In this document: positions 3,364 to 38,172 of the stretch, in pieces
Layout: each line of letters starts with the position of its first letter
Position numbering within the stretch: position 1 is the first letter of the stretch
Made by a program: the position numbers and the translations under genes
From: Yuukianura sp. NJ FZ-2021
Lineage: Eukaryota
Length of the DNA stretch: 64,000 bases
Direction of reading: 5' to 3'
Assembly (NCBI GenBank): GCA_046563655.1
Contig: CM102283.1
Location: 3,720,001-3,784,000, forward strand
Notes under the pieces: generated by a model
What the model was told of the DNA's origin: nothing
Databases searched by the model: none
The model's input: only the letters and a program-made list of their open reading frames with translations

Positions 3364-3683
3364 ATGTCTACAAAACGTTATTTGGGGTTATTTTTATTGA
3401 CCTGCTGTCTCTCCTTAAGTGCAATTTAGTGACTAACTTTGGCTAAAGTGGTTATTTGTCCATTTGCTTTTTAGGCACAAGTGATTTAGTTTAAATCTCA
3501 CTTGATTTCATCAATTTCAACTTAAAAGTATTTTCACGAAAAAGTATTGTCACCAATTTCCAAAATTTGTTACAATCAATCACAATTTTCAAACTCACAA
3601 AAGTTAATTTAAAATCACGTTAAGCCCTTGTCACACTTTTCTTGCTAAAAATTCCTATAATTTGTCAAGTACTGCGCATGTGA

Positions 3684-4796
3684 CTACACGTAGTATCTCT
3701 TTTCATGTCTGTTTCCTTGGTACAGGTACGCCAGAATAATCCAGAGAAAGTACAGCGTGAGGAGCAAGTTGACGCCCAGCACTGGAAACAAAACGCCCCC
3801 TGACGGAGTCATGTGAACCAAATTCACTGGATTCTCCTGCAGAAGCAGCGCCAACAAACAAGTTGCCAGAGAAAAAATTACTCCGCCAGTCACAGCTATC
3901 CAGATCTTGATTACCGTCTTGTTTCCCTAAAGTAAACAAAATTTTATGCAAAGGGACGTTCAGGGGTCATTTGATTTAAGAGACAAAGGTCATAGGGCAT
4001 CCAGAGTGTAAGAAAAATAAGGAACCGAGTGGGATTCGAACCCACGTCTCTTCAATCCAGGAAGCACTCTAACCATTGGGCTATCAGGCCCCAAGTTACA
4101 AACTCTATGCAATTCTCATCCTGTGGCTAGTGGAACTGTTCCCAAAGGTACCATAGGTCATTGACCTTTGAGTTTGACCTTTGACCTTGGACCTTCTGAC
4201 CTTATCTAGAGTCCAGAGGAGTACCACTGCTGAGCACAGTTGTAGAATTCCCCCGAAGAGTCCGTTGAGTCCGCAAATGTAAGAGACTCTCTCCATTTCA
4301 GAGTAGTCGGGAAGACTCGGGAGTTCGAGATTCTCCCGAATGGATTTCTCCTTCATCATCATGCGTTCCACTCCTTCGTTGTCGCTGAACGCCAATTGGA
4401 GTTTGAGCATGTGCTCAAACTTCTTGGCCGAGGAGGTGGACATGTTGCGACGCATGTTGGCCCAGTCAGTGTCAATTCTTCTTTTCCAGTCGTTGTACTC
4501 AGTGCGCAGGATTTTGTACAGAGGAAGGAGAGATGCGTTGTGGATCCGGTTGGCAGAGTGGATCATCATACCCTGCGTTATGATCACACCAATCGCCAAA
4601 ACCTACGTCAAACGTCAAAGTTTTTCATAAAAGTCAAAGTTTTTGCTGTATTTCATACACCAAGTCAAACTTTATGCAGTGTATCATAGGTCAAAGGTCA
4701 AAGTTTAGTATTTTGACTTACGATTGACACCGTTGCGGATACTTTTGCACAAGTATGAAGCGGAATGCAGCAAGGATCTGGAACACTAGAAAGCAT
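3684..4796 (-). CDS. Small multi-pass (about 4-TM) membrane protein, LAPTM/DUF4728-like, paralog 1
   Basis: Three exons 4796(or 4832)-4722, 4602-4201 and 3926-3684, all phase 0 with GT-AG. N-terminal CC motif, hydrophobic segments and a long first loop. The family name is inferred from architecture only. Confidence 0.75.
4021..4091 (-). ncRNA. tRNA-like Pol III-type unit (pseudo-tRNA or SINE head) in intron 2 of paralog 1
   Basis: GGCCTGATAGCCCAATGGTTAGAGTGCTTCCTGGATTGAAGAGACGTGGGTTCGAATCCCACTCGGTTCC: A box, B box, 5-bp T stem, 4-bp anticodon stem, followed by a T run. Confidence 0.75.
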
Positions 4797-5311
4797 TTTT
4801 AAGCAACACGAACTACTCCGTTCCTCAAACATTAACTTTACTTTAAAATTCACTTTTTCAACTACTAAAAAGTTAAAAAAAAGTTTTTCAAAAAAAATCT
4901 GTGTAGAAATCGACTGAAAGTGAGAATGTGGTTGTGCTTCTTGCAGGATCTGTACTTTCACCAGCAGCTTTCTCTCTCCAGCATCACTCGACCAAACTTT
5001 TGTGCTGGTATAGAGTCATATCCACCCACTGCGCTGCGCAGTCGCTTTCAAGGTCACGCAGACCCAGATTTTTCAAAAAAAAATGTAGAGAAAAAAGCTT
5101 TTGCCCTAATTTCGACACCATTTCAGCAAATTGCATCCGTTACACTCAAAATGAAAATCAGAAAAATCAAAATGAAAGGTCAAAGGTCACTTCTCGCAGT
5201 TTGAATTTATTTTGGAGTCTGTTTTATTCAAAATAGACTTATTTTTGATTTTGAAGGGTTAATTATAGTTATAAATCGTAAAGTAATTATAAATTATATT
5301 AATTATACGTT

Positions 5312-6611
5312 TTAGTTGAGTGTTGCTACAACTAGGAGAGCATAAAAGCAGAATAAAGTGTGGCTGATGACAAAGGGAATGACAAGAGTTTGTTCTGCTG
5401 CATGCTGTGGAAGTGTTGAGTCTAAACGAAGCAGCAGAAATATTGACGTCAGGAGACACAAAATGACACCCAGAGTGACACTCATCCAGAACTGAGTCCA
5501 CGCTTTGTGTTCCTTAATTACAAATTACTTATTATAATTATATGATTAGAAATTATAATAATTATGTTGTGATAGAAGAAGTTGCAGTTTTTAGAAAACT
5601 TTTTATGTGAACTACCTTATGTAGAGTGCATAGTAGAATGACTGAAGCCATCAACTGAAACAAGGATCCACTTAATGTTAAACCTCCAGTCACAAAAAGG
5701 GCGGATCCAACTGAAGACAGTTTTGATCCAATTTCTTCATTTTGGAAATTTTCATTTTGATTTTGAATAGCGAAAACTTGAGATTTGAGCAGCATCGATT
5801 TTTTCAGAATCGAGATTGAGCAACTTCCGAGCACCAGAGTCATTACCTGAAACAAAAAGTTAAAATTCGGGAAACTTTTTCCATTTAACAAAAAACTGAC
5901 ATGGTACACATGCGTGCTGGGGGGTCGGCCAAATCGTGACTTTTGTTTCCAAAAGTCCTACTGTAGAAAGTTAGAAGGTGTGATGTTGTTTTTAAAAAAT
6001 AATATTTTGGAATTTTGTAACTTTCAATAAAAAAGGAAAATGCACTTTAGTGAATTTGTTAGCCTAATCCTGACTTTTTCCAAAAGTCCTTCTGTAGAAA
6101 GTTACAAGGTGTGGTGATGTTTTAAAAAACAGTATTTTCGAATTTTCTAAATTTGTCATATATTAGGAAAATACACTTAGTAATTTTTAGCCCAAAATCG
6201 TGCTTTTAAACTAAAAAATTTGAGAGTAAAGAAATCAACTAGTAAATTACTATAGTTGGGGCAACCAAAATAGACCCAAGTTTTTCTAGAGGATACTCGC
6301 ACTCACGCCCTTCTCCAGCTGGCACCCGCTTCTCCACTCAACTCCAAAATGAACCTCCCATCTAAGAAGAGACTGCCACAAGCTTTACAGAGGTGTGAGT
6401 GCGAGTATCCTCTACAAAAACTTGGGTCTATTTTGGTTGCCCCAACTATAGTAGTAACTACGCAATTGCGGAATTACGTCATTAGTAAATGAATGAATTG
6501 TTGTTATAAACTTACAATCGAAATGTGCAAAATGACTTGAATTCCGGATTTTTGACGCAGAGCACACAAATCTGTCCTTTCTCTCCCATCCTCGTTTGTT
6601 GTCGCGTCCAT
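5312..6611 (-). CDS. Small multi-pass membrane protein, paralog 2
   Basis: Exons 6611-6516, 5846-5616 and 5512-5312 have the same phase-0 junction positions as the other paralogs (..HISI|VMTL..; ..LLCTLHK|EHKAWTQFW..). About 175 aa. Confidence 0.7.
6250..6451. mobile_element. MITE with ~60-bp TIRs and TA flanks (Tc1/mariner-type), in intron 1 of paralog 2
   Basis: CTATAGTTGGGGCAACCAAAATAGACCCAAGTTTTT.TAGAGGATACTCGCACTCAC and its reverse complement; TA at 6248-6249 and 6452-6453. Confidence 0.8.
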
Positions 6612-7817
6612 TTATGAATGAAAAATTGTATTATTCTATAATTCATAATATATATGTTTTATACAGTTTGGTATAATTTTTAAGTAACTTTATGTGTAGA
6701 TATTATGTTTTTGATCTTACGTGTGTACCAAACCGTGACTTATTTTTCAAAGCAAAAATGTTTGCCAAAAACCTAGAAAAATTTACGTGTTTAAAAATAA
6801 CACAATCCGCATAGTTTTCACTCCAACTTTCATCATTTTTGGGATTCGACAGGTTGGAAAATGTGCTTCCGCCTTTCTAAAAATGTTACGCCTGAATTCC
6901 TCAACAAAAAATTTAGAAAATTGCACACGCCTTTCAACCCAACTCTTTGATGAGCAAATAAATTTATCATTTATTATTATTATTATTTATTATTTCTCGT
7001 TCTTTACATTTTTAATCTCTAATTCGCAAAGAAATCACAAAGGAATTTTTACCCTAGAGTAGTTAAGTCTTCCAAGTTTTTAGAGTTGCTAAAAATAATT
7101 AATGTGTTTGAGCCTTTCGAGGTTAAAAGTCTCTCCGCTATTCCTTTTTACCCTAAACGTTTTTGCCAGGACTTTTCAAAAACTTGCTTTCAGCACGTTT
7201 TGGTGGGACTTTTCAAATACTTGCTTTCAGCACGTTTTGGTGGGACTTTTCAAAAATTAAAACTTTTGTCCATATGCACACACGTATTTCTCTCCATTCC
7301 CTGCGGCTGAAACTGAAACTAAAACATGTACATTTCCCCTCATTTCAAATTCAACCGCCACTCTAGAAATTTAAATTCAGGTCATCGCACAGGGGAATTA
7401 CTACAGTATGCTACAAATTCAAAAATTCGCACTGAAATTTTTCAAATACGTCCAACCTTTTTAACCTACGGCTCATGAAATCGAGCTCACACGGACAAAA
7501 TGTCAACTTGACAAATCTCAAATTAAGGTCAACAGTCATATCATACTTCAAATTTCACCAAAAAAAATTACCTAAACAGTTTTTTCTCCATAATTTTTTG
7601 CCTAAACAAAAAGAATTTCTAAAATTAGTTTACTGACATGAGCGGAAGAACTATATTTTCTTCTGCTAAATTGCAAAGACCAGCTTCACAAAACCTAAGT
7701 TTAACATTTCACCGTATGACCGTATGAGCAATAAATCTAAGCTACACTTTTTAGTAACCATGAGCAGAAATTCAAACTTTGGAAGTACTTTTTTAGCAGC
7801 ACATGCTTCGAAGTATT

Positions 7818-8913
7818 TCAGGCGCCGCCGCTTGTGCTTGGCATGTCAATTTCGTCCTTGACAAAGACGATGATGACCCAGAGGAAGTAGAGGAGGAGGA
7901 GGAAGTCCACTGCTGCCAGACTCAGGAAAACCTCCATCGTGAGGGAGTGGATGACCTCGGGATGCTTCTGCGACGCCGCAAGCACCACCGCAGTCACCAC
8001 AATCACCAGGCTAAACGTCATCCCACACCACACTTTCGCAGGAGTCTTCGTCTCCTGAAACACAAACGTCAACTGAGCTCAATGTCACGGTCAGGGGTCA
8101 CAGGGGTTGAGACATAAACAACGACAGTGTAAAAAAAATAATGGACCCAGTGGGATTCGAACCCACTTCTGTTCTAGCCAGGAAGCACTTTAACCGTTGA
8201 GCCATCAGCTCCCAGTTTACAAACTCTCCAAAGATGGAGCAATTGGAAGGCAATCCTCATCATAAACGCCACAACGGGTCACATGGCTTGTGAGACAAAG
8301 AACGAGATGTAAAAAAAATAAGGAGGGAGCAGGATTTGAACCCAAGTCTCCTCTATTCAGGGAAGCACTCTAACCCTTGAGCTATTAGGCTCCAGTGAAT
8401 AAACTCTCGACTGGGTCAAGAAGGCATGTGACTCACCTTCTCTGCTGACTTGAGGAGGAAGAAAGAAGCTAAAAAGCGAATGGATCCGCCGGTTATGCTT
8501 GTGATGGAGCAGATGAGAAGAATGTTCGTGTGTATTTCTGAGTTGACCTCGGTGACCTCTTCGTCAGTGGACTTTGGAGGGACTTTGACAGGGGTCATCG
8601 TGGTCACGAGTGGATCATCACCAACCATGAGGGCGGAGAAAGCAAACCAACAACCCATCACAAGGTAACTAGCAGACAGAGCCTGGAAAGGAAACCAAAA
8701 TTCGGAAAATTTTGAAAACCAGAGTAAAAATTTTCAAATTCAATGAATTTGACTCACCATTGACACAGTAGCGACGGTTTTGATTCCGTTTTGGATTGGC
8801 ACGACACCACAACAACAGCAGCACGGATTCACTGACAAAAATGGATCAAGGAACGGGCCACGGTCACCGTGAATCGACATTCTGGTCAACTTGGAGCCTA
8901 TCTTCTCTAGCAT
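7818..8913 (-). CDS. Small multi-pass membrane protein with N-terminal CCCCC, paralog 3
   Basis: Exons 8913-8758, 8682-8437 and 8054-7818, all phase 0: MLEKIG..NPCCCCCG..ATVSM|ALSASYL..LLKSAEK|ETKTPAKVW.. Confidence 0.85.
8143..8212 (-). ncRNA. tRNA-like unit in intron 2 of paralog 3 (distal copy)
   Basis: GGAGCTGATGGCTCAACGGTTAAAGTGCTTCCTGGCTAGAACAGAAGTGGGTTCGAATCCCACTGGGTCC followed by T8. Confidence 0.7.
8322..8392 (-). ncRNA. tRNA-like unit in intron 2 of paralog 3 (proximal copy)
   Basis: GAGCCTAATAGCTCAAGGGTTAGAGTGCTTCCCTGAATAGAGGAGACTTGGGTTCAAATCCTGCTCCCTCC followed by T8. Confidence 0.65.
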
Positions 8914-11900
8914 GCTTCAAATCAACCAATCACAACACTCTCTGGTCACTGCCGACCAATCACAGCACTGCTCTGTTCACTTACAACAATTTAGCACACT
9001 TACAACAATTTTGGTTAACTTTCACTTGGAAGTGAAATTTGCCACCTAATCGATGATTGGAGAGGCAAGGAAACACCAAAAGTGACGGAAAGTGGCTGGA
9101 AATGTCGCTGGAGAGACACTGGGAGTGTCGCCAAGTGGCTGAAATGTCGCTGGAGGACACGACCATGCGAGGGACCTTGGATTTCCCGAAGGCAGAACCT
9201 CGATGCCCAAAGTTCCTCTGACGAGTGACTCCGCTGGCCCTCCGTCGCTCCTTTTTGGAGAAAGCACAACAAAAACTCTCGCTTTCCACTCAAACTCTCA
9301 CTTTCCTGCGCCAAACTGAAACAACCTTGCAAAACACTCATTCTAAACAACTAACATTTAAAATATCAGTACAACTCTCGTGGAGGGAAATTCAAAATGA
9401 AACACAACTTCCAAGGAAAAAACACTTTTGAGCACATGGGCCACTTCAAGGCCACTTTCATAAAAGTATTTTCTGGAAATCCTGTTGTAAAAAGTGTAAT
9501 TTTGTGAATGTGTGGCCATAATTTGTGTAGCCGCAGAGTGGAAGAAGCCCAGAATGCTTTCTCTTTTTTGTCTCCGCCCACTGTCTCCCAAACTCACAAT
9601 TTATTTCACCCGCCAAAATTATTAGCAAGAACTTTCACAGTCTTTCCATTTCTCGACTTGGAGGATTCACAAAAGAAAAGAGAAGTTAATCGCAGAATCT
9701 AAAGCCAAACTTACCGTTACTCCAAAGTCAAAATTTCAAAGGAAATTTGGATTTAAAAAAATAAATGCAATTATAAGAATGAAGTTCAAAATACAGATTT
9801 CAAAAGTCGGATTTTCCAAAAGATTAAACAAAATTCTTCTTCTCAACTTTTTCGGAAGACCATAATTTCTTGAAATGACAATGGAATTGGAAATAAGCAA
9901 AATTCAGGGTCATTTTGTGTAAATGACTGCAGTGACAATTTCACAGAAATTGGAAGAGTGTGACACAAATTTTGAGTTTCCACGAACAAAGTCGTTTCAA
10001 AGTTTCAAATTCTCTCGCCCTTCGATGACTCGAGTGCGTGGGCTGCAGAATTTCCGATTTCGGAAAGATTTCATTTCGTTCAGAATCCAAATTACGTCCA
10101 TTCAATTTCAACTCTGAAAGTTTGTTGGGCAGGGCAGTTTTTGTAATGGCTGTTCCTGGAAATGTGGATTCGGATTCAAGAGATTTTGAATCGGCCAGGA
10201 AATGACTCACGTAGACCACAATTTTCATCTGTCTCCACTTGGCGCCAAATTCAAACGGAAAATGAGTTGAAACGACCTAATTCAGGTCCAATGTAGCCTA
10301 AAAACGCAACCGATTTTTAAAAAAGCGCCCACTTTTAAAATTTAAGAATTGGAAGGAGAGTGAGGAAACAAAAGAAGATGAGAGCCCTTGAGACTTTGGT
10401 CAACCTCAGAAGAGGCTCCATTTTCAAAAGTGTTCCGAAGTGGGTGGGAGGTGGGGCAGGGTGGGGTGCCTTCCATTGATGCTGACCTCCTTTCTCCTGC
10501 TTGTGACCTTGCAGCTTTCTCCGGGCTTTCCCCACTCACTCCACTTTTCGCTTCTTCTCAAAATTCTTCTTTAGCAAAAATCTCTTTGGCGGCAGATTTA
10601 GCTTCTCATTTCCTCCTTTTCAATAATTCTTTAGAATGAGCGACAGCAGAGACCACCCTTACGACACTTCATCCATCACAAAATAAGTGGAAACCAAAAG
10701 AACAGATTCATTCTTCCCTTCAAAGTTCAAACTGGACACAACTGCAGTGCTGCTCAAATGAAAGTGAAAGATGAGACAGATAATCAATAAGGATCACAAA
10801 AAGAAGACATCTCAAACAAACTGGATAAAAAACTGTAAAAACGACACTTCTGGAAAAAAAAACTGAAAGATGTGGAAATGATGATCTCTTTTTGTCTAGA
10901 ATTGTCTAAAATTCCATTTACAAATGACACCAAAGCACAAGAGTGTCACCGGAGGAGTGGACAGGACTGCATACACTTCCATTTATCACTCGGACAGACA
11001 CATGAAATAAAGTGTTGGTGCAGGAGACTTGCCTGCACAGAGGTCAAGATGACCTTGTGACCCCGGGGTCAACGGAGGCACTCATTTGGGTGGCAGGGTC
11101 AAAGGTCAACTCAAACAAACGACCAAAGAGAACTCTCGTCTCAAATTGCCCCTTATCTCCCATTTTGTCATTTGGCAAAGTGCTCTCATCTTTTTAGTTC
11201 ACAAAGCGGGAACGCTGAGATGAAAAAACAAGAAAAACTCCCGGGTTTTTTCGGTTTTTTTGCTATTAAGAGCAAGGTGGTTTTTTCTGAAAAAGAAAAG
11301 AAGTGGAGAGACTTCAGCAGAAGGACAGAAAAATTCAAGGGGACTTTTGGCACTTTGAAGTGCCTGCGCAGAACGGATTTCGTTGAAGACAGTTTTTTCC
11401 TCTGGCGACTCCTTAAAAAAATTCTTTCAAGAGAAAGTGCATATTTTACATTCTGCGAAATTCTGTGCAAAAAAGTTTTTAACACTGAATGCCTGGATTA
11501 TGTATTCCCAAAAAACAAAAAAATTGAATTGTTTTTATACCAGTTTCTCACATTTTATTTCTCTTTTCAAACTTTTTTTTCAAACAGAACTTTTTCAAAA
11601 TGTATAAATCGGAAGTTTTTTGTTTCTGAAACCAACCTTCTCTTTTTTTCATAAAGTTGCAAAGTAAACTTTAAGGTCCGTGAAAATTAGTCAATAGAAT
11701 TCATGTTTGTTGTAAATTGAGTTTAGTATAACACGGACTTGTTGATTGGTTAGCAAAAAAGTAAAGTTGGCTTGAGAAATTCTGCTTTTAAATTCACAAA
11801 CAAAGATTAAGTTATGGAGGAAGGATGAAGTTAAAACCGGGGTCAACCAAACTCGATTTCTATCTTGCATTTGACCTCAATCCAAATGAGATTCCTTAAT

Positions 11901-12380
11901 TGACTTTTGACTTGTGATGTTAGTTTTGCAAAGTAAATAGAAATTGCAAGTAGAATACGGAAGAGACCTCATTTGAAACTATGGGATTTGCATGTTAACA
12001 GTTAAAAGTAAAACCGGATTTCTCTGTTTTAAATGCAGTTTTTAAATTGTAATGATTTGCACCAGAGGAAGTCTAAACAAGGTTTCCTTTTCAACTCATT
12101 ATACTGTCATTGTCATTGTTAAAACCTTCAAGGAAATTGGCATGTGCAAAAACCATGCAAAAAAGAGTGACTTAAAGTTTAAGCAGAAATATTTAGCACA
12201 GTTAGAGAAAAAGGGAAGCCTCGTTTCAGTTTCAATCAGTTTGGCTCACAAGTCCAACCGGTCAGTAGTCACATACACCACGGTCAGTAAGTTGATGAAG
12301 GTTGTGCTAAAATTTCAAAAAAAGAGGTTTTAAGAAAAAACTTTTTCAAAAGTTAGCCTAAGATTTCAAAAAGTTTAAAA

Positions 12381-13371
12381 ATGAAGCACCTACTAAAACT
12401 TTTCTGGATTGTTGGAATTTTGGCAAAAAGTTTTTCGATCACCGTCGCTTCAGGATTTGCAAACGGGCAGTTCTATGTGATCAGCAGCGCCACCAGTTCA
12501 AAGGTGAGGATTTTCAAAATTTTGATTTTGAAAAATGAAAAAATAAAATTTTGGAAATTTTGAAGGTCTTGACTGCGGGAACAACAGGAAGTTTTAGTCG
12601 TGGAGCTTCTGTAGTACTGACGCTGTGGAACGACGATGCTAACCAAAAATGGTTAGCACTGGAAGCGCCAGCGATTGTTCAAATCAGCCCAACGGCACGG
12701 GAAATTCAAACTTCGCGCTACTTTTTAGTTCCACAAAAACAAGAATTCGATTGGTCAAAAGTGACTCAAAATGGCGCCAAAAATATCACGTCGACCAATG
12801 ACCTTCCACCATTCACCGAAGTTCTATCAATCGATTCTGTAACTGGAAATCTCACTACAGAAGTAAAAGTTTTCAAAAATTTTTTAATTTTTTCAAATTT
12901 TTTAATTTTTGGAAATCCTTGATTTTAATTGGCTAGGTGTTCAACCAATCAAGTTCAAGTCAAGCCTGGATTCCAGAGGAAGTTGGAGTAGACGGGCAAA
13001 TCTTCATCCGAAATCTAGGAAATAATCAATGCATCAAAAATTTTGAGTACACTTTTCAAAATCTCTACTCATTTTTTCTAAGTTTGGAAAAACGGTAATT
13101 TCTAAAAAAAAATTTTTTTTTCTTGATTTGTAGTAAACCTGCAAACCTCATCCAAAGAATTTTCAGCTTCATTAGACGAATTAGACAGCATCAGAAGCAG
13201 TAAGCTTGAATAACTCATTAGCAAAAAAACTAACTTTTCAACGAATTCGAAAATTTCAAAATTTTCAAAAAACTTCAATTTTGAAAAAATGTTTTTAGCG
13301 TACCAAATCCGCTAAGCACTTTCGACTGCAACGTTAAGGACGCCACGGAACGGTGGATCGCTGAACTTTGA
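12381..13371 (+). CDS. Secreted ricin-B (beta-trefoil) lectin-like protein
   Basis: Exons 12381-12503, 12566-12862, 12937-13046, 13134-13199 and 13299-13371 splice in frame. Signal peptide, QxW-type motifs (NQKW, SQAW, ERW) and IRNLGNNQCI..DC. Confidence 0.7.
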
Positions 13372-14936: not shown

Positions 14937-16446
14937 ATGGATACCAAAGACTACAAAAACTTTTCAGTCGTACTTTTTAAAGCCGAAAATAGGTTTTCAG
15001 TTGTTCCTTCGTCATGGCTGGCTTTTGATGACGACGAAATACGTTGTCACTGGCCATCAAAGCTAACTAAAAACGTAAGTGAACTGGCTGAATCGGCTGA
15101 GTCAACCCCAGGAAAGGATTGGAGAAAGTATGACATTGAATACATCAAATCATTCGGTAAGCAAATTACTAGTTCAATTTTTAATGAAGTACACAGTTTA
15201 CTAAATAATCAACTTTGCTAGGATTTAAATTAACTAAACGTTTACTGTTTTTTTTCAGTTTCACGTGAAAAGGCGTTAAAAAAATCCAACGCTCTGCGAA
15301 CTTCAAAAGTCCTTGAGATTCACGATACTTCAGAAAGCGAGGGACAGTCTCAGGTCAGATTACCAGCGCCGACCGTATCACTACATCACAATTTTGCTGA
15401 AGAACAGCCGAATGGCGATGAATCGGGCCTTCATACATTGACAGAGTCAGAAGGTGATTGTCATACAATTTTTTCCTTTGATTAATCTAGGTAAACTGTA
15501 ATTGTGTTATGGTTTATTTTAGTAGCAGTCAATCAAGAAGCTCCACTAAACCTGACATTGGTTAATACTGCCGTCATCGATGAACTAAACACCAGAATTC
15601 AGCAGTTGCAATACAGTATCGAGCAACAGCAATACGAGTTCCGTGGTAAGTATTTGTATCATTACACTAATCATAATTCTGAGTTTCCTAGTTTAAGTTC
15701 TGCGTATTCTTGTTACTTTCAGAATTCCAAACAGTTGTTCTTGAAAATCAGGCTACGTTAAAACAGGAATTTGCGGACTTACTGAAATTGGTTAGGCAAG
15801 CCTTGTCTAGGACGCAAGAGACGCAGCAGCAAAACAGACACGATTATCCGTCATTGCCTCTAAAGTCATTGGATGAGTTTCACAGTACTGAGTCAGCTGT
15901 GCAAGACCAACTTCAGTACAAGTTTTTGGTATGAAAAGCAAATTGTTAATCATCGCCTTAGTATAATTTTGATTGTAAAATTTGCTTGATTTGTAATACT
16001 TTCATGGATGTGCATTATTTTACGTGTTGTAGGTAGAGGAACTTGCTAGAGCAGGTGGGCCGACGGTACCCAAGACGGTATACAATACCCTACGACTTCT
16101 GCTGTCGGAGGATTTGAGAAAAGCAGTTCGAATAACAGAAAACTCCGGTAAACTTGCTTTTGGCGGTTTGAAATTAGCGGCTGCAGTGAGAGGTAAGTTT
16201 ACAGTTTCTACTTCGTCACTGTTAAATATCACACCAATCATTCCATTTTCCCATGCCAGTTATAATTAAGCAAAAAGATTAGTATATGCTTTAAATTATG
16301 ATGTTGTTATTGCAGAAGCTGTTCAGAAATCCTGCCCCGGAGAAGACGCGAGCATCTCTACACAAAATATTTACATTGGCCGATTCTTCCGCAACACGAA
16401 AAACAAAAATGGAAACTCCCAGGAGAACCAAGGCCAGACGAATTAG
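14937..16446 (+). CDS. Transposon accessory protein (DUF4806-like), 6 exons
   Basis: Exons 14937-15156, 15259-15453, 15523-15645, 15723-15928, 16033-16192 and 16316-16446 splice in frame. N-terminal VVPSSW..HWP..PGKDW domain, a coiled-coil-like segment, and C-terminal LPLKSLDEF..GG..IGRFFR. Confidence 0.7.
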
Positions 16447-18274
16447 AGGGGAAGTACAACGAAATCTTTTCAGAATTCAAAACTACAATTCACCAGCAAG
16501 CTCGTCACCAGTTCTCGACATTCCATTGTCAAACAACCCACCTCTTAGTCAAGCTACAACAAGTTGTGATTCAAGTGTGAGTAACTATTTGCTTCCAAAT
16601 TCTATTTCAACTACAAATTCTGACGATGTCTTTCAAGAACAGTTGGGCAAAAAGGATATGTTAAAAAGTTGGGCATTTGCACACAATATTACCGGAATTG
16701 CTCTTACAGATTTGCTAAAACTTCTTAAAGATTGGCTTCCTTCAGAAAATTTTCCTAATGACTCACGTTCGTTTTTGCAAACTCCGAGAGGATTGACTAC
16801 CAAAAAAGTAGCAGGCGGTGAGTTATTTTATTTCGGAATTAAGGAAAATTTGGTTCAAATTGTTGAAAGTACAGATAATTATTTTACACCTGGATCAGAA
16901 CTGCCAATTACAGTTGGAATTGATGGCGTACCTTTATCAAAAAGTTCAAACTTACAGTTTTGGCCAATCTTAGGAAAAGTAGCAGTTTGTAACCGAAAGT
17001 TTGTGTTTGTCATTTCGGTGTATTGTGGATACACAAAACCAACCGATGTGGGGGAATACTTGTCAGATTTTATAGTTGAAATTAAAGACTTGGAAGAAAA
17101 TGGTTTACGTGTTAAAAATAGTGTGCTTAAGTTTATTTTACAGGCAATAATCGCAGATGCTCCGGCTAGATCATTTTTAAAATGCATCAAACCCCATCAG
17201 TCCTACTATGCTTGTGAACGCTGTTATGTGCGTGGGACTTGGAAAAAAAATCGAGTAACGTTTCCTACGAAAACTACTTCTTTGTATACAGATTCATCAT
17301 TTAAAAAACAAATCTATAAACGCCACCATAACAGCGTATCCCCGTTAGTGGGACTTAATTTTGATGTCATTTCAAAAATGCCGTTGGACTACATGCATTT
17401 GTGTTGCTTAGGAGTTATGAAAAAGTTGCTAAGTATTTGGACAACAGGGTGTTACAAGTTATCTCATTTAGGTGTTACTAAGATATCAAAGCGTATGCTA
17501 AGCTTTAGAAAACATATACCAAAAGATTTTGTAAGGAAACCACGAGCTTTAACAGATTTAAAGCACTTCAAAGCCACAGAATTCCGTCTATTTATGTTAT
17601 ACTTAGGACCGATTGCCTTAAGAAATATATTGTCAAAGGAGAAATATGAACATTTCCTACTATATCATACAGCTATGTATATTTTAGTATCGACACACTC
17701 AAGAAACTTAGGATGGTTAGATTATGCTAACAACCTAATTTCTGAATTTGTATCTCAAATTCCAACTCTGTACGGCCAGGAACTTATGACTTACAACATG
17801 CATTCTCTACTTCACATAGCACAAGATGTGAAAATTCACGGCAGTTTGGACAATTTCAGTGCTTTTGATTTTGAAAATTTTATGCAAACATTGAAAAAGT
17901 TGCTCCGAGCCAATAGTAATCATCTTGTTCAAGCGGTCAATCGAATCAAAGAGAGGAAAAATCATTTTAACGCTGAAATTGTGCAAAAAAATAGTGCTAT
18001 CAGTAGTTTAACAACTGAAAGTTGTTACTTAACCATAGATAACAGCGTATGTGTTGTATCAAATGTAAACCAAAGTGCGGGTCTATTTGATGTAAAAGTG
18101 TATCGGAAAATTAGAAGTGTAAAATCCTATCCGTGTGATTCATCTTTGTTGGGAATTTTTATGTGTAGTGATTTGTGCAATACCCCTAAAGTTGTAAATA
18201 AGGATTACTTAAAGAAAAAGTGTATTTGTTTACCATTTAAGAAAAAATTGTTCTGTATTCCAATGTGCAATTAA
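16298..18274 (+). CDS. EnSpm/CACTA-type DDE transposase (uninterrupted ORF; alternative start M at 16409)
   Basis: Motifs GIDGVPLSKSS..QFWPIL, ADAPARSFLK..CERC, LDYMHLCCLGV, FKATEFR and YNMHSLLH..SAFDFEN, typical of animal EnSpm-like transposases. Confidence 0.9.
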   Translation: MMLLLQKLFRNPAPEKTRASLHKIFTLADSSATRKTKMETPRRTKARRIRGEVQRNLFRIQNYNSPASSSPVLDIPLSNNPPLSQATTSCDSSVSNYLLPNSISTTNSDDVFQEQLGKKDMLKSWAFAHNITGIALTDLLKLLKDWLPSENFPNDSRSFLQTPRGLTTKKVAGGELFYFGIKENLVQIVESTDNYFTPGSELPITVGIDGVPLSKSSNLQFWPILGKVAVCNRKFVFVISVYCGYTKPTDVGEYLSDFIVEIKDLEENGLRVKNSVLKFILQAIIADAPARSFLKCIKPHQSYYACERCYVRGTWKKNRVTFPTKTTSLYTDSSFKKQIYKRHHNSVSPLVGLNFDVISKMPLDYMHLCCLGVMKKLLSIWTTGCYKLSHLGVTKISKRMLSFRKHIPKDFVRKPRALTDLKHFKATEFRLFMLYLGPIALRNILSKEKYEHFLLYHTAMYILVSTHSRNLGWLDYANNLISEFVSQIPTLYGQELMTYNMHSLLHIAQDVKIHGSLDNFSAFDFENFMQTLKKLLRANSNHLVQAVNRIKERKNHFNAEIVQKNSAISSLTTESCYLTIDNSVCVVSNVNQSAGLFDVKVYRKIRSVKSYPCDSSLLGIFMCSDLCNTPKVVNKDYLKKKCICLPFKKKLFCIPMCN

Positions 18275-20982
18275 TTATTAGAATTCTGTTGGCATATAGT
18301 CTATATTTCAAAATGTTGATTAATAAAATAAAGTTAATCAGAAACTGAGACTAAATTTGTTGCTATCATTTTATCGAATATTTCGCGTACAAAAAGTAAA
18401 TGAATCGTATATACAAAAGCAGTATCGTTTAGATAGAGAAATTTTATGTATCGATTCGGTAAGGCATTTTTATACAGCGCTCCTCTCCCTGTGCGTTTTG
18501 TATACATTAGTATCCGCACCGAAAATGCATATGAAATTTGGGCAAAACCTCACTCAAGCATAACGCTCTTGTATTCACTAAGTATGTACATATTCCGTAC
18601 GACTTGGTAACATGGGACGTCCACTCTATTAACTTTCTCTTCTAAATTACTGTTTTTTAGAAAGTTCAAAAATTTCCCGTCCAGTTACGACTTTCCTTGT
18701 GTTGCACTTTTATGACTTCCAGCATCGTCATGGTCGTTGAACAGTCAAAGGTCAAAGGTCAATGACCTCTAAGCATTTCCTTTTTTTTGCTAACCTTGAA
18801 CTTTAAAGAAAGTGCTAACTTTTACATTAAATTTTAAGTTTGAAAAAGTTTCCCGCCGAAAGGGAAAAACCCTTCAGCATGTTGATGGCCGTTTTGTAAA
18901 AAAAAAAAAGTTGTGGCGGGAAAACTTTTTTTCCCGACCAATAGGAAATGAGCTTTTTAGCGTTGTATCGATAAGACAGAAGTGGGAGCAATTCCGACTA
19001 ATGTTTCAAGTCATCAAGGAATGTCACCCTACTCCTAATAGGCACTCTGCCGTGACAAATGGAGCACGATAAAAAATTCAATTGAAACTAAAGATCCGAG
19101 GGGGATTCGAAGACACGACCACCACAAAAAAATTGCGGGAAAAACAGTTTGAAAAAATCGTTAAGTTGGCACATCTCCCAAAGCGACTGTTTAGTTTTAG
19201 ACAGAACAAAAAATAGTTTTCCTACCACGCAACTTGAAATTTAAAAAATCCAATTTTAGTTTTTGAAATGTCGCCACATTTGAAATGTCGCCCTTTGTGG
19301 TCATCCTGACAATAAACAGAATGGGTCATTGTTCAAATGGAATGGAAAACAAAGACATAAATTTTTCTGAGTGTTCCACGACCTTTTTTTTTGTATGTTT
19401 CTGCGCATCCGCATTTTCCGGGCTGGAAGAGTTATAGCAAGTCGAGACTAGAAGGGGCGGGATTTGGCAAAAACCCACGGATTTTCCCACGGTGGGGCTG
19501 TTTTTTGGTGGGGCCGGTTAGGCTATGTGGTGGAGTGACATGAAAAGTTATGTCAAGTGCCGCCAAAGTTATGTCGAACATCAAATTTTATGAGCGGGAA
19601 ACCTTTTCAGCAGGAGGTATTTCCTTTCTCTCTGTTTTCTCTAATTCAAATGTAAACAAACGCAACTCTCCAGAAAAATTAACGTCCTGTGGCGCCAAAT
19701 TCAAAACAACAACAAACAAAAACACACACTACATTTCTCCCGCGTAAAAATCAATTTCAAAACTCCCGACAATTTTTTGAAAAACGAAATGCAAAAAAAA
19801 ATACCCATTAGCGACGTAAAACTTAAACAACTTTTCAAAAACCTGATTTTTGTCATCTCGTGCAAAATTTTAGGGAAAAATTTTGAAGTGAAAGTTGTGA
19901 GGTGGTGAAAGCTAGAATATGAAAATAAAAGTTTTTGTAACGACCACTTTCTCCAGGAAACTCAAATCAAACTTTTTCTTTTGAAAGTGAGAAATTTTTG
20001 CAAAAGTTGAGATTCTTTCTATACTTTTTTTTTGTAAAAATTTTCAAAACAAAATCCGAAGCTGTAATCGTGCGAGACCAGACAGGAAAACAATTTTAGC
20101 ACGAAAACTTGCTGCGCACGCAATGCAAAGTGCCAAAGTACTCCTGAATTTTTCTGTTCTTCTGCTGAAGTTTCTCCACTTCTTTTCTTTTTCCAAAAAA
20201 AAAGAGATGTGAGCCACCTTTCTCTTAATACCAAAAACCGAAAAAACCCGGGAGTTTTTCTTGTACTTCATCTCTGCTTTCCCGCTTTGTGGACTAAAAA
20301 GATGGGAGTACTTTGCCAAATGACAAAATGGGAGATAAGGGGCAATGTGAGACGAGAGATTTCTTTGGTCGTTTGTTGGAGTTGACCTTTGGCCTTGACA
20401 CAAATGAGTGTGCCTCCGTTGACCCCGGGGTCACGAGGTCATCTTGACCTCTGTGCAGGAAGTCTCCTGCACCAACACTTTCCTCCATGCGTCTGTCCGA
20501 GTGATAAATGGAAGTGTATGCAGTGCTGTCCCATTCTCCGACGACACTTTTTTGCTTTTGTGTCATTTGTAAATGGAATTGAACACAATTCTGGACTGAG
20601 AGAGATCATCATTTCTACATCTCTCGGTTTCTTTTTCAGAAGTGTCGTTTTTTTCAGTTTTTTTTATCCACTGTGTTTGAGATGTCTTTTTTTTGTGATC
20701 TTTATTGATTATGTGTCTTACCCTTCACTTTCATTTGACCAGCACTGTACTTGTGTCCAGTTTGAACTTCGAAGAAGGGAAGAATGAGTGGCTGTTCTTT
20801 GGGTTTCCATTTATTTTGTGATGGATGAAGTGTCGTAAGGGTGGTCTCTGCTGTCGCTCAATCTAAGAATTATTGAAAGGGAGGAAATGAGAAGCTAAAT
20901 CTGCCGCCAAAGAGGTTTTTGCTAAAGATGAATTTTGAGAAGAAGCGAAAAGTGAAGTGAGAGGAGAAAGGCGGGAGAAAGC

Positions 20983-21432
20983 TAGAGGTGCCCCGAATAT
21001 TGAAATGGCCGAATACCGAATAGCCGAATAATTTCGGAAAAAATATTCGCCGAAGCCGAATATTCGGCCGAATAAAATACTGCGTAGAAAGGTGGCAAAA
21101 TGAAAATTTTTTGACACATCTGAGCAGAAATTTGACCGGAAGACGTTCACAGGAGTATCAACACAAATGTGTAAACAGCATAATCTGTTTAAGCATGAGC
21201 TAATTCGATCCGCTACTATTTTCTTGTCGATTCTTGATAAGAAACTGGGAAGGCAAGGCCCCTTTTGCGATAAAATCAGTGGAATTTCTTGCGAAAATAC
21301 GCCAAATTATTCGGCCAGATATCTGGCCAGATAATTCGGCCAGATTTCCCGTCGGCCTAATATGCCGAATATTAAAAATTCCCAATATTAGCCGAATAAT
21401 TATTCGGCGACCGAATATTCGGGGCACCTCTA
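20983..21432. mobile_element. Non-autonomous hAT-type element, 450 bp
   Basis: Perfect 19-bp TIR TAGAGGTGCCCCGAATATT, 8-bp TSD GAGAAAGC (20975-20982 and 21433-21440), many subterminal CCGAATA/TATTCGG repeats. Empty site in the left arm near 10514-10521. Confidence 0.92.
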
Positions 21433-22926
21433 GAGAAAGCTGCAAGGTCAGAAGGAGAAAGGAGGTCAGCATCAATGGAAGGCACCCCCACCTCCCACCC
21501 ACTTCGGAACACTTTGAAAATGGAGCCTCTTCTGAGGTTGACCAAAGTCTCAAGGGCTCTCATCTTCTTTTGTTTGTTGACTTTTCTTCTGAAAATCAAA
21601 TTTCAAAAGTGGTCACTTTTTTTAAAAATCGGTTGCGTGTTTAGCCTACATTGGACCTGAATTAACTCGTTTCAACTCATTTTCCGTTTGAATTTGGCGC
21701 CAAGTTGAGACAGACGGAAGGTGTGGCCTACGTGAGTCATTTCCTGGCCGATTCAAAATCTCTTGACTCAGAATCTACATTTCCAGGAACAGCCATTACA
21801 AAAACTGCCCTGCGCAACAAACTTTCAGAGTTGAAATTGAATGGATGTAATTCTGGATTCTGAACGAAATGAAATCTTTCCGAAATCGGAAATTCTGCAG
21901 CCCACGCACCCAGAAAGTCATCAGAGGGCGGGAAAATTTGAAACTTTGAAACGACTTTGTTCAAACTCTTTGCGGAATCTCAAAATTTGTGTCACACTCT
22001 TCCAATTTTGAGTGAAGTTTTCACTGCACTGCAGTCATTACACAAAATGACCCTGAATTTCGCTTATTTGCAATTCCATTGTCATCTCAAGAAATTATGG
22101 TCTTCGGAAAAGTTTGGAAGAAGAAATTGGTTTAATCTTTTGGAAAATCCGACCTTTGAAATCTGTATTTTGAACATTATTCTTCTAATTGCATTTATTT
22201 CGTTTAAATCAAAATTTCCTTTGAACTTTTGACTTTAGAAGAACTGTGAGTTTGGCTTTAGATTCCGCGATTAACTTCTCTTTTCTTTTGTGAATCTTCC
22301 AAGTCGAGAAATGGAAGATTGTGAAAGTTCTTGCTAATAATTTTGGGTGGTGAAATAAATTGTGAGTTTGGGAGACAGTGGGCGGAGACAAAAAAGAGAA
22401 AGCAGAATTCTGGACTTCTTCCACTCTGCGGCAACTCAAATTATGGCCACACATTCACAAAATTACACATTTTATAACGGGATTTCCAAAAAATACTTTT
22501 ACTGTATGAAAGTGCCCTTGAAGTGGCCCATGTGCTCAAAAGTGTTTTTTCCTTGGAAGTTGTGTTTCATTTTGAATTTCCCTCCACGAGAGTTGTACTG
22601 ATATTTTAAATGTTAGTTGTTTAGAATGAGTGTTTTGCAAGGTTGTTTCACTTTGGCCCACTCCGTTTGGCGCAGGAAAGTGAGAGTTTGAGTGGAAAAA
22701 GAGAGTTTTTGTTGTGCTTTCTCCAAAAAGGAGCGACGGAGGGCCAGCGGAGTCACTCGTCAGGGCAACTTTGGCCACCGAGGTTCTGCCTTCCAGAAAT
22801 CCAAGGTCCCTCGCATGGTCGTGTCTTCCAGCGACATTTCAGCCACTCGGCGACATTTCAGCCACTTGGCGACACTCCCAGTGTCTCTCCGGTGACTGGG
22901 CAACACTTGAAAGTCCAAGTGAGTGA

Positions 22927-25577
22927 ATGAATTGTGGAGTGACTATGCGAGAGAAGCGAGGTTCCAGGTTGTCCAGGATGTCTTTTGGTGAGCGTGGACC
23001 GTTCCTTGATCCATTTCTGTCAGTCAATCCCTGTTGCTGCTGCTGTGGTGCCGTGTCAATTACAAACGGAATCAAAACTGTCGCTACAGTTTCAATGGTA
23101 AGATCAATTCCAAAAAAAAAAGTTTCAAAAAAATATGTTCTAATTTTCAAATTTTCTGTTGTCATGTTTTTGGTTGGTTAGGTTAGTTAAGCCTTCTGAA
23201 CTTTTCACAAGGGATTATGTTGAAGACGTTGTAAAAACGCGCCCAATTAGCAATTCGAATTCCCGCGCTTTCCCTGGAACTCATTTTCCCATTGTCCTAA
23301 TTCTGCTTAATCCCAGCTCAACTGTCTTGGCGGGAGAATTCTAAAAGGCATGAGAATTTGAGAATTCTTGACTTTTCTGCAGAATTCTTTGACTTTGAGA
23401 AAGAATTCTGAGAAATTTCGGGAGAATTGTGAATTGTAATTGAATTTAAATGTTGAAATGAGTGGCGGGAAGACTTAAAATTCAATTCAGAGTGAAAGAT
23501 GAAGACTTTCGGTGGAGAAAGTTGTGGAAGTAATGAGACAGTCGATATGGAGGGACCTTCTGTGTTGCGTTGGCTGCTTTTTCTTTGCTTAAAGTTTAAC
23601 AAAAACTTTGTTCTAATTTTTCTTCTCCTTTCGAATATTTAATTTTGTTTCAAAAGACCTTTTGACATGAACCACAAGAGGCCTACTAACTTTTTTTTTC
23701 TTAAGGCGAAAAACAAAGACAAAAAAAAGAAGAAAAAGGTTGGTAGCGGTTTCAAAAACTTTTCTCATAAAGTTTTTCTCGAGAAAACTTTTCTTCTTTA
23801 CGGAAGAAACAAACTGCCTGTAATCATTCACTGCCCATTCAATAATTTAGTTTACTCTAGTTTCAGTTTGCGCAACTCCAAAAAAAAGTTTCACAAAAAC
23901 GAAAAAGTATTATTTTTTTCTTGTCTAAGATTTCGAATTTTTTGAAAAAACGGAAGAAATGTTGAGGATTTCTTTGTGTGGCTTAAACGTGCCGCCATAG
24001 AATTTAATTTCTTTGGAAAAAATTCATTTTCGTGTTTTAAATTTTTTATTTCTCTGGAACTAATTTCCATTTGTGAATTAAAACTCTCCAAAAATGAGTT
24101 TTTAATTTCTGCTGGTTTAAAAGTGAATTCTGTTTGGAAATGAAAATAATGAGATGTGTTTTGTCTTTGACTTGGAAAAGTTAGTTCCTGAACCGCAGCT
24201 TTTATTTGACTTTGAGTGAAAGACTAATTCGTTCCACTTTTTCCCCAGTTTTGTTCATTCTCCTGTGCAGTTTTAATGAAAACCAAAACTCGAGAGAGAC
24301 TTTTTGTCTTCCGGTGGTTGGAGAAAAGTAATTAAAGTTGCGTTAACTCCTCCGCAAGGCACGACCATTTACTCCTTTTCAATTATTCACCCACTTCCCA
24401 CTTACTTCAAAACAACCAAAACACAAACTACTTTGGTCAAAAACACATTTCAAAACTACCGCCTTTTACCACCTTCATCTCCCGAAGGCAAATTTAAGCA
24501 CTAAAACCAACTTTCACCTTTATATTATTAACTATAAACACTCCAAAATTCAGCACATTAACATTCTCTTTTCAAAAAAAGAGTTAATGAAATCGAGAGA
24601 AAAGATCATGAAACTTCAAAATTTCACAAGAAAATCTCTGGAACTTTTTTTTATGGCGGCTGACAAGTGCCCAGTAATTTTTAGTTTCTAATTTTTTCAA
24701 TCTTTTTCTAAAGACATTTCTTAAATTTTAGATTGTGTCTGCTTGTTACCTGGTGATGGGATGCTGGTTTGCATTTTCTGCACTCATGGTGGGTGATGAC
24801 CCTGTGCTCACCCCTGCAAAACCCCTCAAAACCCCCGACGACGAATCCATCCCCGCCAGCACCGAAAACCTCATGAATATTCTCCTCATCTGCTCCATCA
24901 CGAACATCGCCGGAGGAGCAGTTCGGTTTCTAGCTTCACTCTTCCTCCTCAAATCAGCAGAGAAGGTGAGCCACATGATCTCTTGACCCCAGTTGGCAGT
25001 TTGTTGACTGGAGGCTGATAGCTCATGGGTTAGAGTGCTTCCCGGATAGAAGAGACGTGTGTTCGATTCCCGCTCGGAACATTATTTTTTTACACTCTCG
25101 TTCTTTGTGTCTCAAGCAATGTGACACCTTGTGGCGTTTAGGATGAGGATTGCCTTCCAATTGCTCCATACTTTGAAAATTTACAGACTTGGAGCTGATA
25201 GCTCAGGGGTTAGAGTGCCTCCCGGCCAGAAGAGATGTGGGTTCAAATCCCACTCGGTCCCTATTTTTTTTACACTGCCGTTGCTTGTGTCTCAACGCCT
25301 GTGACCCCTGAACGTGACTTCAACTCAGTTTGTGTTTCAGGAGACGAAGACTCCAGCCAAAGTGTGGTGCGGGATGACGTTTAGCCTGGTGATTGTGGTG
25401 ACTGCGGTGGTGCTTGCGGCGTCGCAGAAGCATCCCGAGGTCATCCACTCCCTCACGATGGAGGTTTTCTTGAGTCTGGCAGCAGTGGACTTCCTCCTCC
25501 TCCTCTACTTCCTCTGGGTCATCATCGTCTTTGTCAAGGAGGCCATTGACATGCCAGGGTTACAGCCATGCGCATAG
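22927..25577 (+). CDS. Small multi-pass membrane protein with CCCCC, paralog 4 (inverted duplicate of paralog 3)
   Basis: Exons 22927(or 22945)-23097, 24732-24965 and 25341-25577, phase 0, GT-AG. Confidence 0.85.
25010..25080 (+). ncRNA. tRNA-like unit in intron 2 of paralog 4 (proximal copy)
   Basis: GGAGGCTGATAGCTCATGGGTTAGAGTGCTTCCCGGATAGAAGAGACGTGTGTTCGATTCCCGCTCGGAAC followed by a T run. Confidence 0.65.
25191..25261 (+). ncRNA. tRNA-like unit in intron 2 of paralog 4 (distal copy)
   Basis: GGAGCTGATAGCTCAGGGGTTAGAGTGCCTCCCGGCCAGAAGAGATGTGGGTTCAAATCCCACTCGGTCCC followed by T8. Confidence 0.7.
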
Positions 25578-35060: not shown

Positions 35061-35150
35061 TTTGTCTTTGTTTTTAACTTCTTTTTTTTTTTTCAAATAA
35101 GTCAAAATGAATAAAATTTTATGCTTTTGCGTAGCGCTAGGTTACTTATA

Positions 35151-35322
35151 AGCCTAATTTATACTTTTCGTTTCCCTGGCGTTTCCCGGGCAAAAGTTTG
35201 TCGTAGGACACGATTTTAACGAAAACTTCATGACGTTTGTATTTAAAATTCGGTTGTTATAGACGTCTACGACAAACTTTTGCCCGGGAGACGTCAGGGA
35301 AACGAAAAGTATAAATTGGGCT
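35151..35322. mobile_element. MITE with ~55-bp TIRs upstream of CYP copy A
   Basis: AGCCTAATTTATACTTTTCGTTTCCCTGGCGTTTCCCGGGCAAAAGTTTGTCGTAG and its near-perfect reverse complement at ~35267-35322. Confidence 0.8.

Positions 35323-35746: not shown

Positions 35747-38172
<2,426 letters not shown>

Follow-up and report, generated by a model that had tools for sequence, protein, structure and literature searches.

Position of the units in the host genes

Five tRNA-like sequences lie in the homologous intron of three related genes, which raises the question of what brought them there and whether they act on these genes. The original prediction, made on the window (the whole stretch of 64,000 nucleotides analysed here), saw in them a possible non-decoding structural RNA, processing signal, or Pol III regulatory cassette linked to these genes, with a tRNA-derived SINE inserted before the gene duplications as the plainer alternative.

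The host genes A, B, and C are paralogous genes for small four-helix membrane proteins. Protein P0006 from Allacma fusca aligns to all three exons of gene B, and P0011 links a fourth gene, D, with A and B/C. Neither the host exons nor the full-length relatives P0006, P0013, and P0011 gave a Pfam family at or above the cut-off. P0009 and P0012 were dropped as repeat-protein false positives. The genes and the tRNA-like cores are as follows.

3684..4800, minus strand: host gene A; exon 3 3684-3926, intron 2 3927-4200, exon 2 4201 to about 4602, exon 1 near 4713-4790 (ORFs, sequence, tblastn)
5312..5957, minus strand: gene D, fourth family member in the window; intron of about 105 nt at the same position, without a unit
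7818..8916, minus strand: host gene B; exon 3 7818-8054, intron 2 8055-8436, exon 2 8437 to about 8680, exon 1 within 8740-8916
22942..25577, plus strand: host gene C, inverted-duplicate paralogue of B; exon 1 22942-23109, exon 2 about 24747-24965, exon 3 25329-25577
4021..4091, minus strand: tRNA-like core u4021 in intron 2 of gene A, least decayed copy (Rfam 40.0 bits over 4021-4090; ARAGORN Ser-GGA)
8143..8212, minus strand: tRNA-like core u8143 in gene B, the unit proximal to exon 3 (Rfam 26.2 bits over 8142-8211, below gathering)
8322..8392, minus strand: tRNA-like core u8322 in gene B, proximal to exon 2, strongly decayed (Rfam 20.8 bits over 8328-8385, partial, model 7-64)
25010..25080, plus strand: tRNA-like core u25010 in gene C, counterpart of u8322 (Rfam 21.7 bits over 25014-25081, and alignment)
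25191..25261, plus strand: tRNA-like core u25191 in gene C, counterpart of u8143 (Rfam 35.4 bits over 25192-25261)

The coordinates of the five units were confirmed, and their placement in intron 2 of the three paralogues, each sense to its host (three on the minus strand and two on the plus strand), is borne out by open reading frames, tblastn, and alignment. With cmscan, two of the five units reach the curated gathering score of the Rfam tRNA model RF00005 (29 bits) and three miss it; the genuine tRNA in the window (54575-54660) scores 59.8 bits. ARAGORN calls one of the five, at 4020-4091, and types it as Ser-GGA. A degenerate 43-nt core pattern matches four times in the window and not once in 100 shuffles, and an nhmmer profile of the extended unit described below finds just the five units in the 64 kb (E 1e-42 to 2e-56; next match E 0.034). 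Therefore, the units are not chance resemblances, and the statement that the 64 kb hold no further complete copy stands. A degenerate core pattern had no match in metagenome and genome contig collections, where the scans were exact-match, the content mostly prokaryotic, and the outcome little informative.

tRNA and promoter features

A working decoding tRNA has an anticodon stem of 5 bp, a loop of 7 nt, and a purine at position 37. In all five units, the cmscan alignment shows an anticodon arm shortened by 2 nt, with a stem of 4 bp, as had been predicted; position 37 carries T in some copies and A in others, and the stem has mismatches in two of the five. The units are non-decoding tRNA look-alikes, and on this point the original prediction was right. 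Reading of the sequence confirmed the loop sequences that it had reported, together with a run of T5 to T8 directly after the core of each unit. The T arm of u4021 is perfect, and its acceptor stem has one mismatch.

An A box and a B box had been ascribed to every unit along with the T-run. When compared at the motif level with box consensus sequences, A-box-like and B-box-like stretches are intact in four of the five copies, with two changes in the B box of u25010. Judging from these motifs and the T-runs, some copies (u4021 and u25191) may have kept the capacity for Pol III transcription; there is no sign that it matters to the host genes. The retention of motifs and T-runs in most copies, together with the sense orientation of all five units in a homologous intron, would suit a functional element that regulates the host genes through Pol III transcription, excision by RNase P/Z, or binding of TFIIIC. 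The mascRNA-menRNA model (RF01684) speaks against it, with 20.5 bits (E 7.3) on 8143-8212 only and a gathering score of 42.5 bits that is not reached.

The extended unit and its duplication

Alignment and nhmmer show that the repeated unit measures about 180 bp, not 70, and consists of a leader, the core, the T-run, and a trailer of about 55 nt.

3960..4140, minus strand: extended unit of about 180 bp around u4021 (nhmmer profile positions 13-191, E 1e-42; alignment)
8091..8451, minus strand: two tandem units of about 180 bp in gene B (nhmmer 8273-8091 and 8451-8272)
24951..25311, plus strand: two tandem units of about 180 bp in intron 2 of gene C (nhmmer 24951-25131 and 25131-25311)

The tandem units of gene B are direct repeats at a spacing of 179-181 nt and occupy nearly the whole of its intron 2 (about 382 nt). 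Within the set of four B/C copies, one pair mirrors the other through an inverted segmental duplication (7839-11371 versus 25556-20112). We infer the following order of events and route into gene A. Since the anticodon arm is 1 bp short in all five copies, the founder would already have been no working tRNA by the time it multiplied. A tandem duplication inside intron 2 of the B/C ancestor may then have given two units, and the inverted segmental duplication four. The fifth copy, which lies at a distance of 4 kb in intron 2 of gene A, would have come by secondary local copying at the DNA level or by insertion of the extended element.

As to insertion, a MITE or DNA transposon is unsupported, since the unit ends share no terminal inverted repeats; those found are short (9-15 nt) and copy-specific, and none recurs at the ends across the three introns. 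Part of the gene A copy lies between direct repeats of 10 nt (3991-4000 and 4152-4161, 90%), which were rejected as a target-site duplication for this copy because the homology to the B/C units continues beyond them. By eye, leader and trailer pair in some copies so as to prolong the acceptor stem, inconsistently across the five.

Conservation, folding, and age

A look at orthologous introns in related species had been proposed as a check. L001 and L002 are orthologue-like loci of gene A from other organisms, with exon 3 residue identities to A of 82% and 86%. Their intron 2 measures about 107 nt and 98 nt, respectively, and holds no unit, with no Rfam match at E<=1, no ARAGORN call, no nhmmer match, and no blastn match outside the exons. 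The unit is also absent from the same intron of paralogue D. In B-type relatives, read-through at the N-terminus serves as a weak proxy; it covers about 195 nt upstream of exon 3 in P0007 and about 330 nt in P0011, and these stretches neither align to the B/C intron nor show, by eye, a translated T-arm motif.

When genes B and C are compared, conservation of the cores does not exceed that of the intron flanks. Counterpart cores are identical at 59/71 and 56/71 positions (115/142, 81%), and counterpart flanks at 46/50, 42/49, 41/51, and 42/51 (171/201, 85%). Paired stem cells amount to 82% overall and 65.7% in the acceptor stem, values that 500 of 500 shuffles reach, and the other 18% of stem cells are broken across the units. 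No unit folds better than its shuffles: the MFE z-scores lie between +0.50 and -0.17, whereas the genuine tRNA at 54575-54660 has -3.08. Compensatory changes had also been suggested as a sign of function; none of the 20 cloverleaf pairs is altered on both sides, a comparison of five sequences only and thus of low power. The best-kept part of the core is the D-arm/A-box region, with 14/19 invariant columns versus 5/14 in the acceptor stem (counted by eye), and this could mean mild constraint on the promoter.

The core of u4021 is 79-82% identical to the other four, and its trailer 68-73%. At third codon positions of exon 3, the identity of A to B/C is 0.34-0.36, compared with 0.41 to L001, 0.51 to L002, and 0.88 between B and C; the silent sites of A versus B/C are saturated. 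By these identities, the gene A copy and the B/C copies share an ancestor much younger than the split of genes A and B, so the segment of about 180 bp entered the homologous intron secondarily. So young an ancestor points to local copying at the DNA level, or to insertion of the extended element, and not to inheritance from the ancestral gene.

An insertion older than the A/B gene duplication and kept ever since by purifying selection would explain why intron, orientation, and flanks are common to A, B, and C. It would have to hold the units at 79-82% identity while the silent sites became saturated, and selection of such strength should keep the B/C cores better than their flanks, which is not the case; L001, L002, and gene D are without the unit as well. 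This explanation is therefore extremely unlikely.

Copies elsewhere in the source genome

The original prediction had called for copy number and context genome-wide, and these were taken from Logan contig pile-ups of four DNA runs (X1-X4) at a likeness of at least 80%, which is not a genome count. The summed depth, which by the tool's own account does not equal copy number, is 13,480, 10,893, and 2,252 in X1-X3 for the bin of u4021 (3962-4142); at 80% likeness, true tRNA genes or other organisms in the sample could have contributed to this pile-up. In the bins one and two steps removed, the depths are 248-551, 337-439, and 42-46, and the adjoining bin 4143-4323 is itself raised (1,504, 1,025, and 203). 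In X1, the two unit bins of gene B have depths of 2,216-2,660, and single-copy contigs 175-210. Immediately beyond the T-run (position 4013), 47, 43, 30, and 21 contigs (X1-X4) leave into sequence with a consensus agreement of 0.44-0.48, and at the 5' edge (4089/4093) 5-13 contigs depart likewise (agreement 0.52-0.54). X1 and X2 each have another 10 contigs with a B-type trailer (agreement 0.70-0.74). The core is thus a multi-copy family in the source genome and has unrelated flanks elsewhere; that there are many such copies is answered by contigs, 21-47 of them departing per run.

This multiplicity counts against the functional reading, since the core also occurs in 21-47 contigs per run with unrelated flanks. 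The conserved D-arm region would favour regulation of the host genes, and the secondary arrival of the gene A copy in the homologous intron might hint at selection or targeting. Set against these are the unit-free introns of L001, L002, and D, cores kept no better than flanks, 18% of stem cells broken with no compensatory pair in 20, and folds no better than shuffles. Regulation by the units appears quite improbable, and the evidence does not support a structural RNA, a processing signal, or a Pol III cassette linked to these genes.

A canonical tRNA-derived SINE, retroposed independently into the introns of gene A and of the B/C ancestor, would agree with a multi-copy family and a core resembling an internal Pol III promoter; SINE-like 'Ser' tRNA expansions are also suspected in springtails, according to the portion of PMC5644144 available. 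However, the T-run straight after the core would terminate a Pol III transcript. The flanks diverge right past the T-run, and hence the dispersed copies share no tRNA-unrelated body and no A-rich or LINE-like tail. The A and B/C copies do share the trailer of about 55 nt past the T-run and part of the leader, which a Pol III transcript inserted by retroposition would not carry, and the sole candidate target-site duplication is crossed by homology. Such retroposition is unlikely. The SINE proposed originally, inserted before the duplications, fits better than the functional reading, with two amendments: nothing points to a SINE body or tail, and the gene A copy cannot predate the A/B duplication.

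Therefore, the five units are probably (about 0.7) decaying, non-decoding copies of a many-copy tRNA-derived repeat family that was spread locally by DNA duplications, in what is probably a springtail genome. They look ordinary and not like a new regulatory device.

Relation to known elements

The springtail Holacanthella duospinosa has 548 'Ser' tRNA predictions, where other isotypes average 18, and the authors regard many of these 'Ser' predictions as likely SINEs, as stated in the same portion of PMC5644144. The likeness to the present family lies in the many tRNA-like copies typed as Ser, as ARAGORN types u4021, and read as SINE-like. Here a subset has an extended unit of about 180 bp, in tandem inside introns, a difference that likewise refers to that portion of the paper. 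Should the families be the same, collembolan annotations could better distinguish real tRNA genes from repeats. The literature search gave no description of this tRNA-like repeat family, which the supplementary tRNA or repeat tables of springtail genomes might hold.

Canonical tRNA-derived SINEs, as characterised in the accessible part of SINEBase (PMC3531059), are alike in having a tRNA-related head with A/B-box-like motifs and in being multi-copy and decaying; in contrast, the present family has the T-run directly after the head with no tRNA-unrelated body or A-rich/LINE-derived tail, and its local copies were moved at the DNA level, flanks included. Human nimtRNAs (PMC7722341), intronic look-alikes reported to influence splicing, and nested RNA genes of Caenorhabditis (PMC3342880) are likewise tRNA-shaped sequences in introns of protein-coding genes. 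Unlike these, as far as the partial texts describe them, the present units are of nuclear tRNA type, they are not conserved in related introns, and a candidate effect on splicing is without support. Elements of the mascRNA/MALAT1 type (RF01684) also have a non-decoding tRNA-like fold, recognisable in principle by RNase P/Z, but they stand at the 3' end of a long non-coding RNA, whereas the units are intronic and only one has a score (20.5 bits).

The locus calls for caution, since a multi-copy repeat and local duplications suffice to place tRNA-shaped sequences, their promoter boxes seemingly intact, in a 'conserved' intron. Such an origin is exposed by comparing orthologous introns, core-versus-flank conservation, and copy number. 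The puzzle of biological note that remains is the arrival of a 180-bp segment in the homologous intron of so distant a paralogue; such a coincidence is unlikely a priori, and the repeat-family explanation does not account for it. It is conceivable, but very doubtful, that, after speciation, a Pol III-type tRNA-like cassette of about 180 bp was specifically copied to the same intron in a paralogue at saturated distance, which could mean targeting to, or selection in, intron 2, with u4021 and u25191 perhaps tuning their hosts as Pol III genes or TFIIIC sites. A possible route for targeting is the TGACC/AGGTCA-rich sequence that intron 2 carries in several family members.

tRNA-like units and their host genes

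The window has a G+C content of 36.6% and is eukaryotic nuclear DNA. The five tRNA-like cores, named by their start in the window and listed below with the position and score of their match to the Rfam tRNA model (gathering score 29 bits), lie at the positions originally predicted, and ORFs and tblastn bear out that each is sense to its host gene and within the homologous intron.

tRNA-like cores
u4021: 4021-4090 (-), 40.0 bits, above the gathering score; the only one of the five called by ARAGORN (Ser-GGA)
u25191: 25192-25261 (+), 35.4 bits, above the gathering score
u8143: 8142-8211 (-), 26.2 bits, below the gathering score
u25010: 25014-25081 (+), 21.7 bits, below the gathering score
u8322: 8328-8385 (-), 20.8 bits, below the gathering score

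Host genes, from ORFs and tblastn
Gene A: 3684 to ~4800 (-), one unit in intron 2
Gene D: 5312-5957 (-), no unit
Gene B: 7818-8916 (-), two units in intron 2
Gene C: 22942-25577 (+), two units in intron 2

An anticodon arm shortened by 2 nt to a 4-bp stem and a run of T5-T8 directly 3' of the core were likewise confirmed in all five units, and a degenerate 43-nt pattern has four matches in the window versus none in 100 shuffles. A unit profile finds just these five in the 64 kb, in agreement with the claim that no complete copy lies elsewhere. The next match, a weak one (E 0.034) at 19086-19117 (-), is a T-arm/acceptor-like fragment adjoining a T-rich stretch, and may be what is left of a sixth copy that lay in no host intron.

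Judged by sequence, the four genes belong to a single family encoding small membrane proteins with four helices, and the intron after LLxxxxK is at an identical position in all of them. A Pfam search of the host proteins gave no family match, and among 1.84 billion protein representatives only seven were found at E<=0.001, two of which were rejected as repeat-protein false positives. Of the relatives only one is named, a 'transmembrane protein' of 167 aa from the springtail Allacma fusca, 66% identical across exon 3; therefore, the window is probably from a collembolan.

Extended unit and duplication history

Homology among the five copies runs both upstream and downstream of the core, and the nhmmer match spans ~180 nt in each, so that the alignment puts the true repeat length at ~180 bp and not 70. 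Genes B and C each carry a head-to-tail pair of these units (spacing 179-181 nt), which occupies nearly the entire 382-nt intron 2. Self-comparison revealed an inverted segmental duplication, or palindrome (7839-11371 versus 25556-20112, 84-90% identity, spacer ~9 kb), of which genes B and C align as the two images; u8143 is therefore the counterpart of u25191, and u8322 that of u25010. On this alignment the tandem pair would predate the inverted duplication, and thus the five copies reduce to two placements, one in the B/C ancestor and one in gene A.

At the nucleotide level genes B and C share 92% identity in exon 3, and their exon 2 is clearly more diverged, which suggests gene conversion or uneven selection. 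The palindrome spacer holds a 659-aa open frame (16295-18274, +), probably a transposase-like gene, with sub-threshold Pfam hints only (DUF1258 and DUF4218).

Constraint on the RNA

The original prediction favoured a structural RNA, a processing signal or a Pol III cassette, and none of these is supported. Between B/C counterparts the cores are 81% identical (59/71 and 56/71), no better kept than their flanks at 85% (46/50, 42/49, 41/51 and 42/51). Cloverleaf cells are paired in 82% of cases overall and in 65.7% in the acceptor stem, values reached by 500 of 500 shuffles, and none of 20 pairs is altered on both sides, although with five sequences the power to see compensatory change is low. 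No unit folds better than its own shuffles (z +0.50 to -0.17). As a positive control, the genuine intron-bearing tRNA gene at 54575-54660 (-), with a 16-nt intron after the 'GT.' anticodon (Tyr-like by eye), scores 59.8 bits in Rfam and has a cloverleaf as its MFE fold (z -3.08). Overall, nothing in the sequences indicates RNA-level constraint, with a possible exception at the D-arm/A-box, the best-kept part of the core by eye (14/19 columns invariant versus 5/14 in the acceptor), where mild promoter constraint is possible.

Related introns and age of the gene A copy

With gene A exon 2 as query, five relatives at 64-82% identity and two metagenome loci, L001 and L002, were found, the latter two 82% and 86% identical to gene A in exon 3. 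Their intron 2 is only ~107 and ~98 nt long, and the 8.6 kb of both loci gave no Rfam match at E<=1, no ARAGORN call, no unit-profile match and no blastn match beyond the exons; these related introns lack the unit. The gene D intron at the same position (~105 nt) also has no unit, and intron 2 of gene A (274 nt) minus one 180-bp unit leaves ~94 nt, a length like that of these unit-free introns. In L002, the equivalent of the window's exon 2 in the gene A relative is interrupted by a further intron (L002 1820-1900), so introns have been gained or lost in this small family.

The core u4021 is 79-82% identical to each other core, and its trailer 68-73%. Third-codon-position identity in exon 3 is saturated between gene A and B/C (0.34-0.36); it is 0.41 for A and L001, 0.51 for A and L002, and 0.88 for B and C. 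No intron sequence is alignable between gene A and L001 or L002. Therefore, the units of A and of B/C descend from a common ancestor that postdates the A/B gene split by far and, apparently, also the divergence from the L001 and L002 organisms. Inheritance of the unit from the ancestral gene was excluded because of this young ancestor and the absence of selection on the B/C core.

The more mundane alternative, a tRNA-derived SINE inserted before the duplications, holds in part: a tRNA-derived repeat fits, but the gene A copy postdates the A/B split. Moreover, since no SINE body or tail is seen and the T-run stands directly after the head, the units fall outside the definition of a canonical SINE. 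A Pol III transcript ending at the T-run is not the intermediate, because leader and trailer were also copied. The gene A copy probably arose instead by DNA-level copying, with local template switching, ectopic conversion, renewed insertion of a single tandem period and insertion of the extended element as candidate routes. Its landing in the homologous intron is one odd, unexplained placement.

Copy number in the genome

Logan contigs from four DNA runs (X1-X3 from one sample of organism A, X4 from organism B) were mapped to 3600-9000 at >=80% likeness. Summed contig depth, which is not copy number, was 13,480, 10,893 and 2,252 (X1-X3) in the u4021 bin (3962-4142) versus 248-551, 337-439 and 42-46 in bins 3781-3961 and 4324-4504, was also raised in the adjoining bin 4143-4323 (1,504, 1,025 and 203), and in X1 reached 2,216-2,660 in the gene B unit bins versus 250 at 8487-8667 and 743 at 7944-8124. 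Contigs that match and then depart are more direct evidence: among the joints listed, 47, 43, 30 and 21 contigs (X1-X4) depart past the T-run at 4013 with a consensus agreement of only 0.44-0.48, and 5-13 do likewise at the 5' edge (4089/4093). Thus, by pile-ups and departures, the genome carries multiple copies of the core, and the supposed tie to this gene family is not upheld, as 21-47 contigs per run lead into differing flanks. Among the same joints, 10 contigs each in X1 and X2 enter a trailer like that of gene B (agreement 0.70-0.74), and at several joints an A-type core is linked to a trailer of the B type, so the extended form seems to occur at further loci too.

Bin 4143-4323, at ~5x neighbouring depth, holds a cluster of AGGTCA/TGACCT half-site-like repeats at the gene A exon 2/intron 2 boundary (4155-4203), with a perfect 13-nt palindrome (4155-4167) and four copies spaced 13-14 nt, which we take to resemble nuclear-receptor response elements; intron 2 likewise carries TGACC-type motifs in L001 and in B/C. 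At 5946-6192 lies a 131-bp tandem repeat (1.9 copies), whose bin has a summed depth of 925,358 in X1 versus ~250-350 nearby, and which is therefore very high-copy and satellite-like in this genome. In X4, one 2,377-nt contig (depth 341.6; flanking contigs ~4) covers 4153-5884 and parts of 6092-6638 and links 6638 back to 4153 through 108 letters of other sequence. In organism B this ~2.5-kb segment thus appears to be tandemly amplified or circular, and one of its breakpoints falls at the border of the gene A unit.

Relation to known elements

The units behave as, and most probably are, decayed tRNA-derived repeats; apart from the one unexplained placement, the family is an ordinary one. None of the five is a working tRNA, and mascRNA is no match either (20.5 bits versus a gathering score of 42.5). 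In the springtail Holacanthella duospinosa, the text consulted reports 548 'Ser' tRNA predictions versus 18 on average for the remaining isotypes, many of which its authors consider likely SINE-like copies (PMC5644144). The Ser typing of u4021 recalls this expansion, and identity of the two families is conjectural. No description of this repeat family was found in the literature consulted, springtail genome papers included.

Other features of the window

A tandem array of ~5 cytochrome P450-like genes, 72-95% identical and assigned by eye from ORF translations including the Cys-heme motif and not by Pfam, occupies 33500-45450 (-). At 768-1148 there is an A-rich tandem array with a 31-nt period, ~12 copies, and higher-order periods of 62, 125 and 156 nt.
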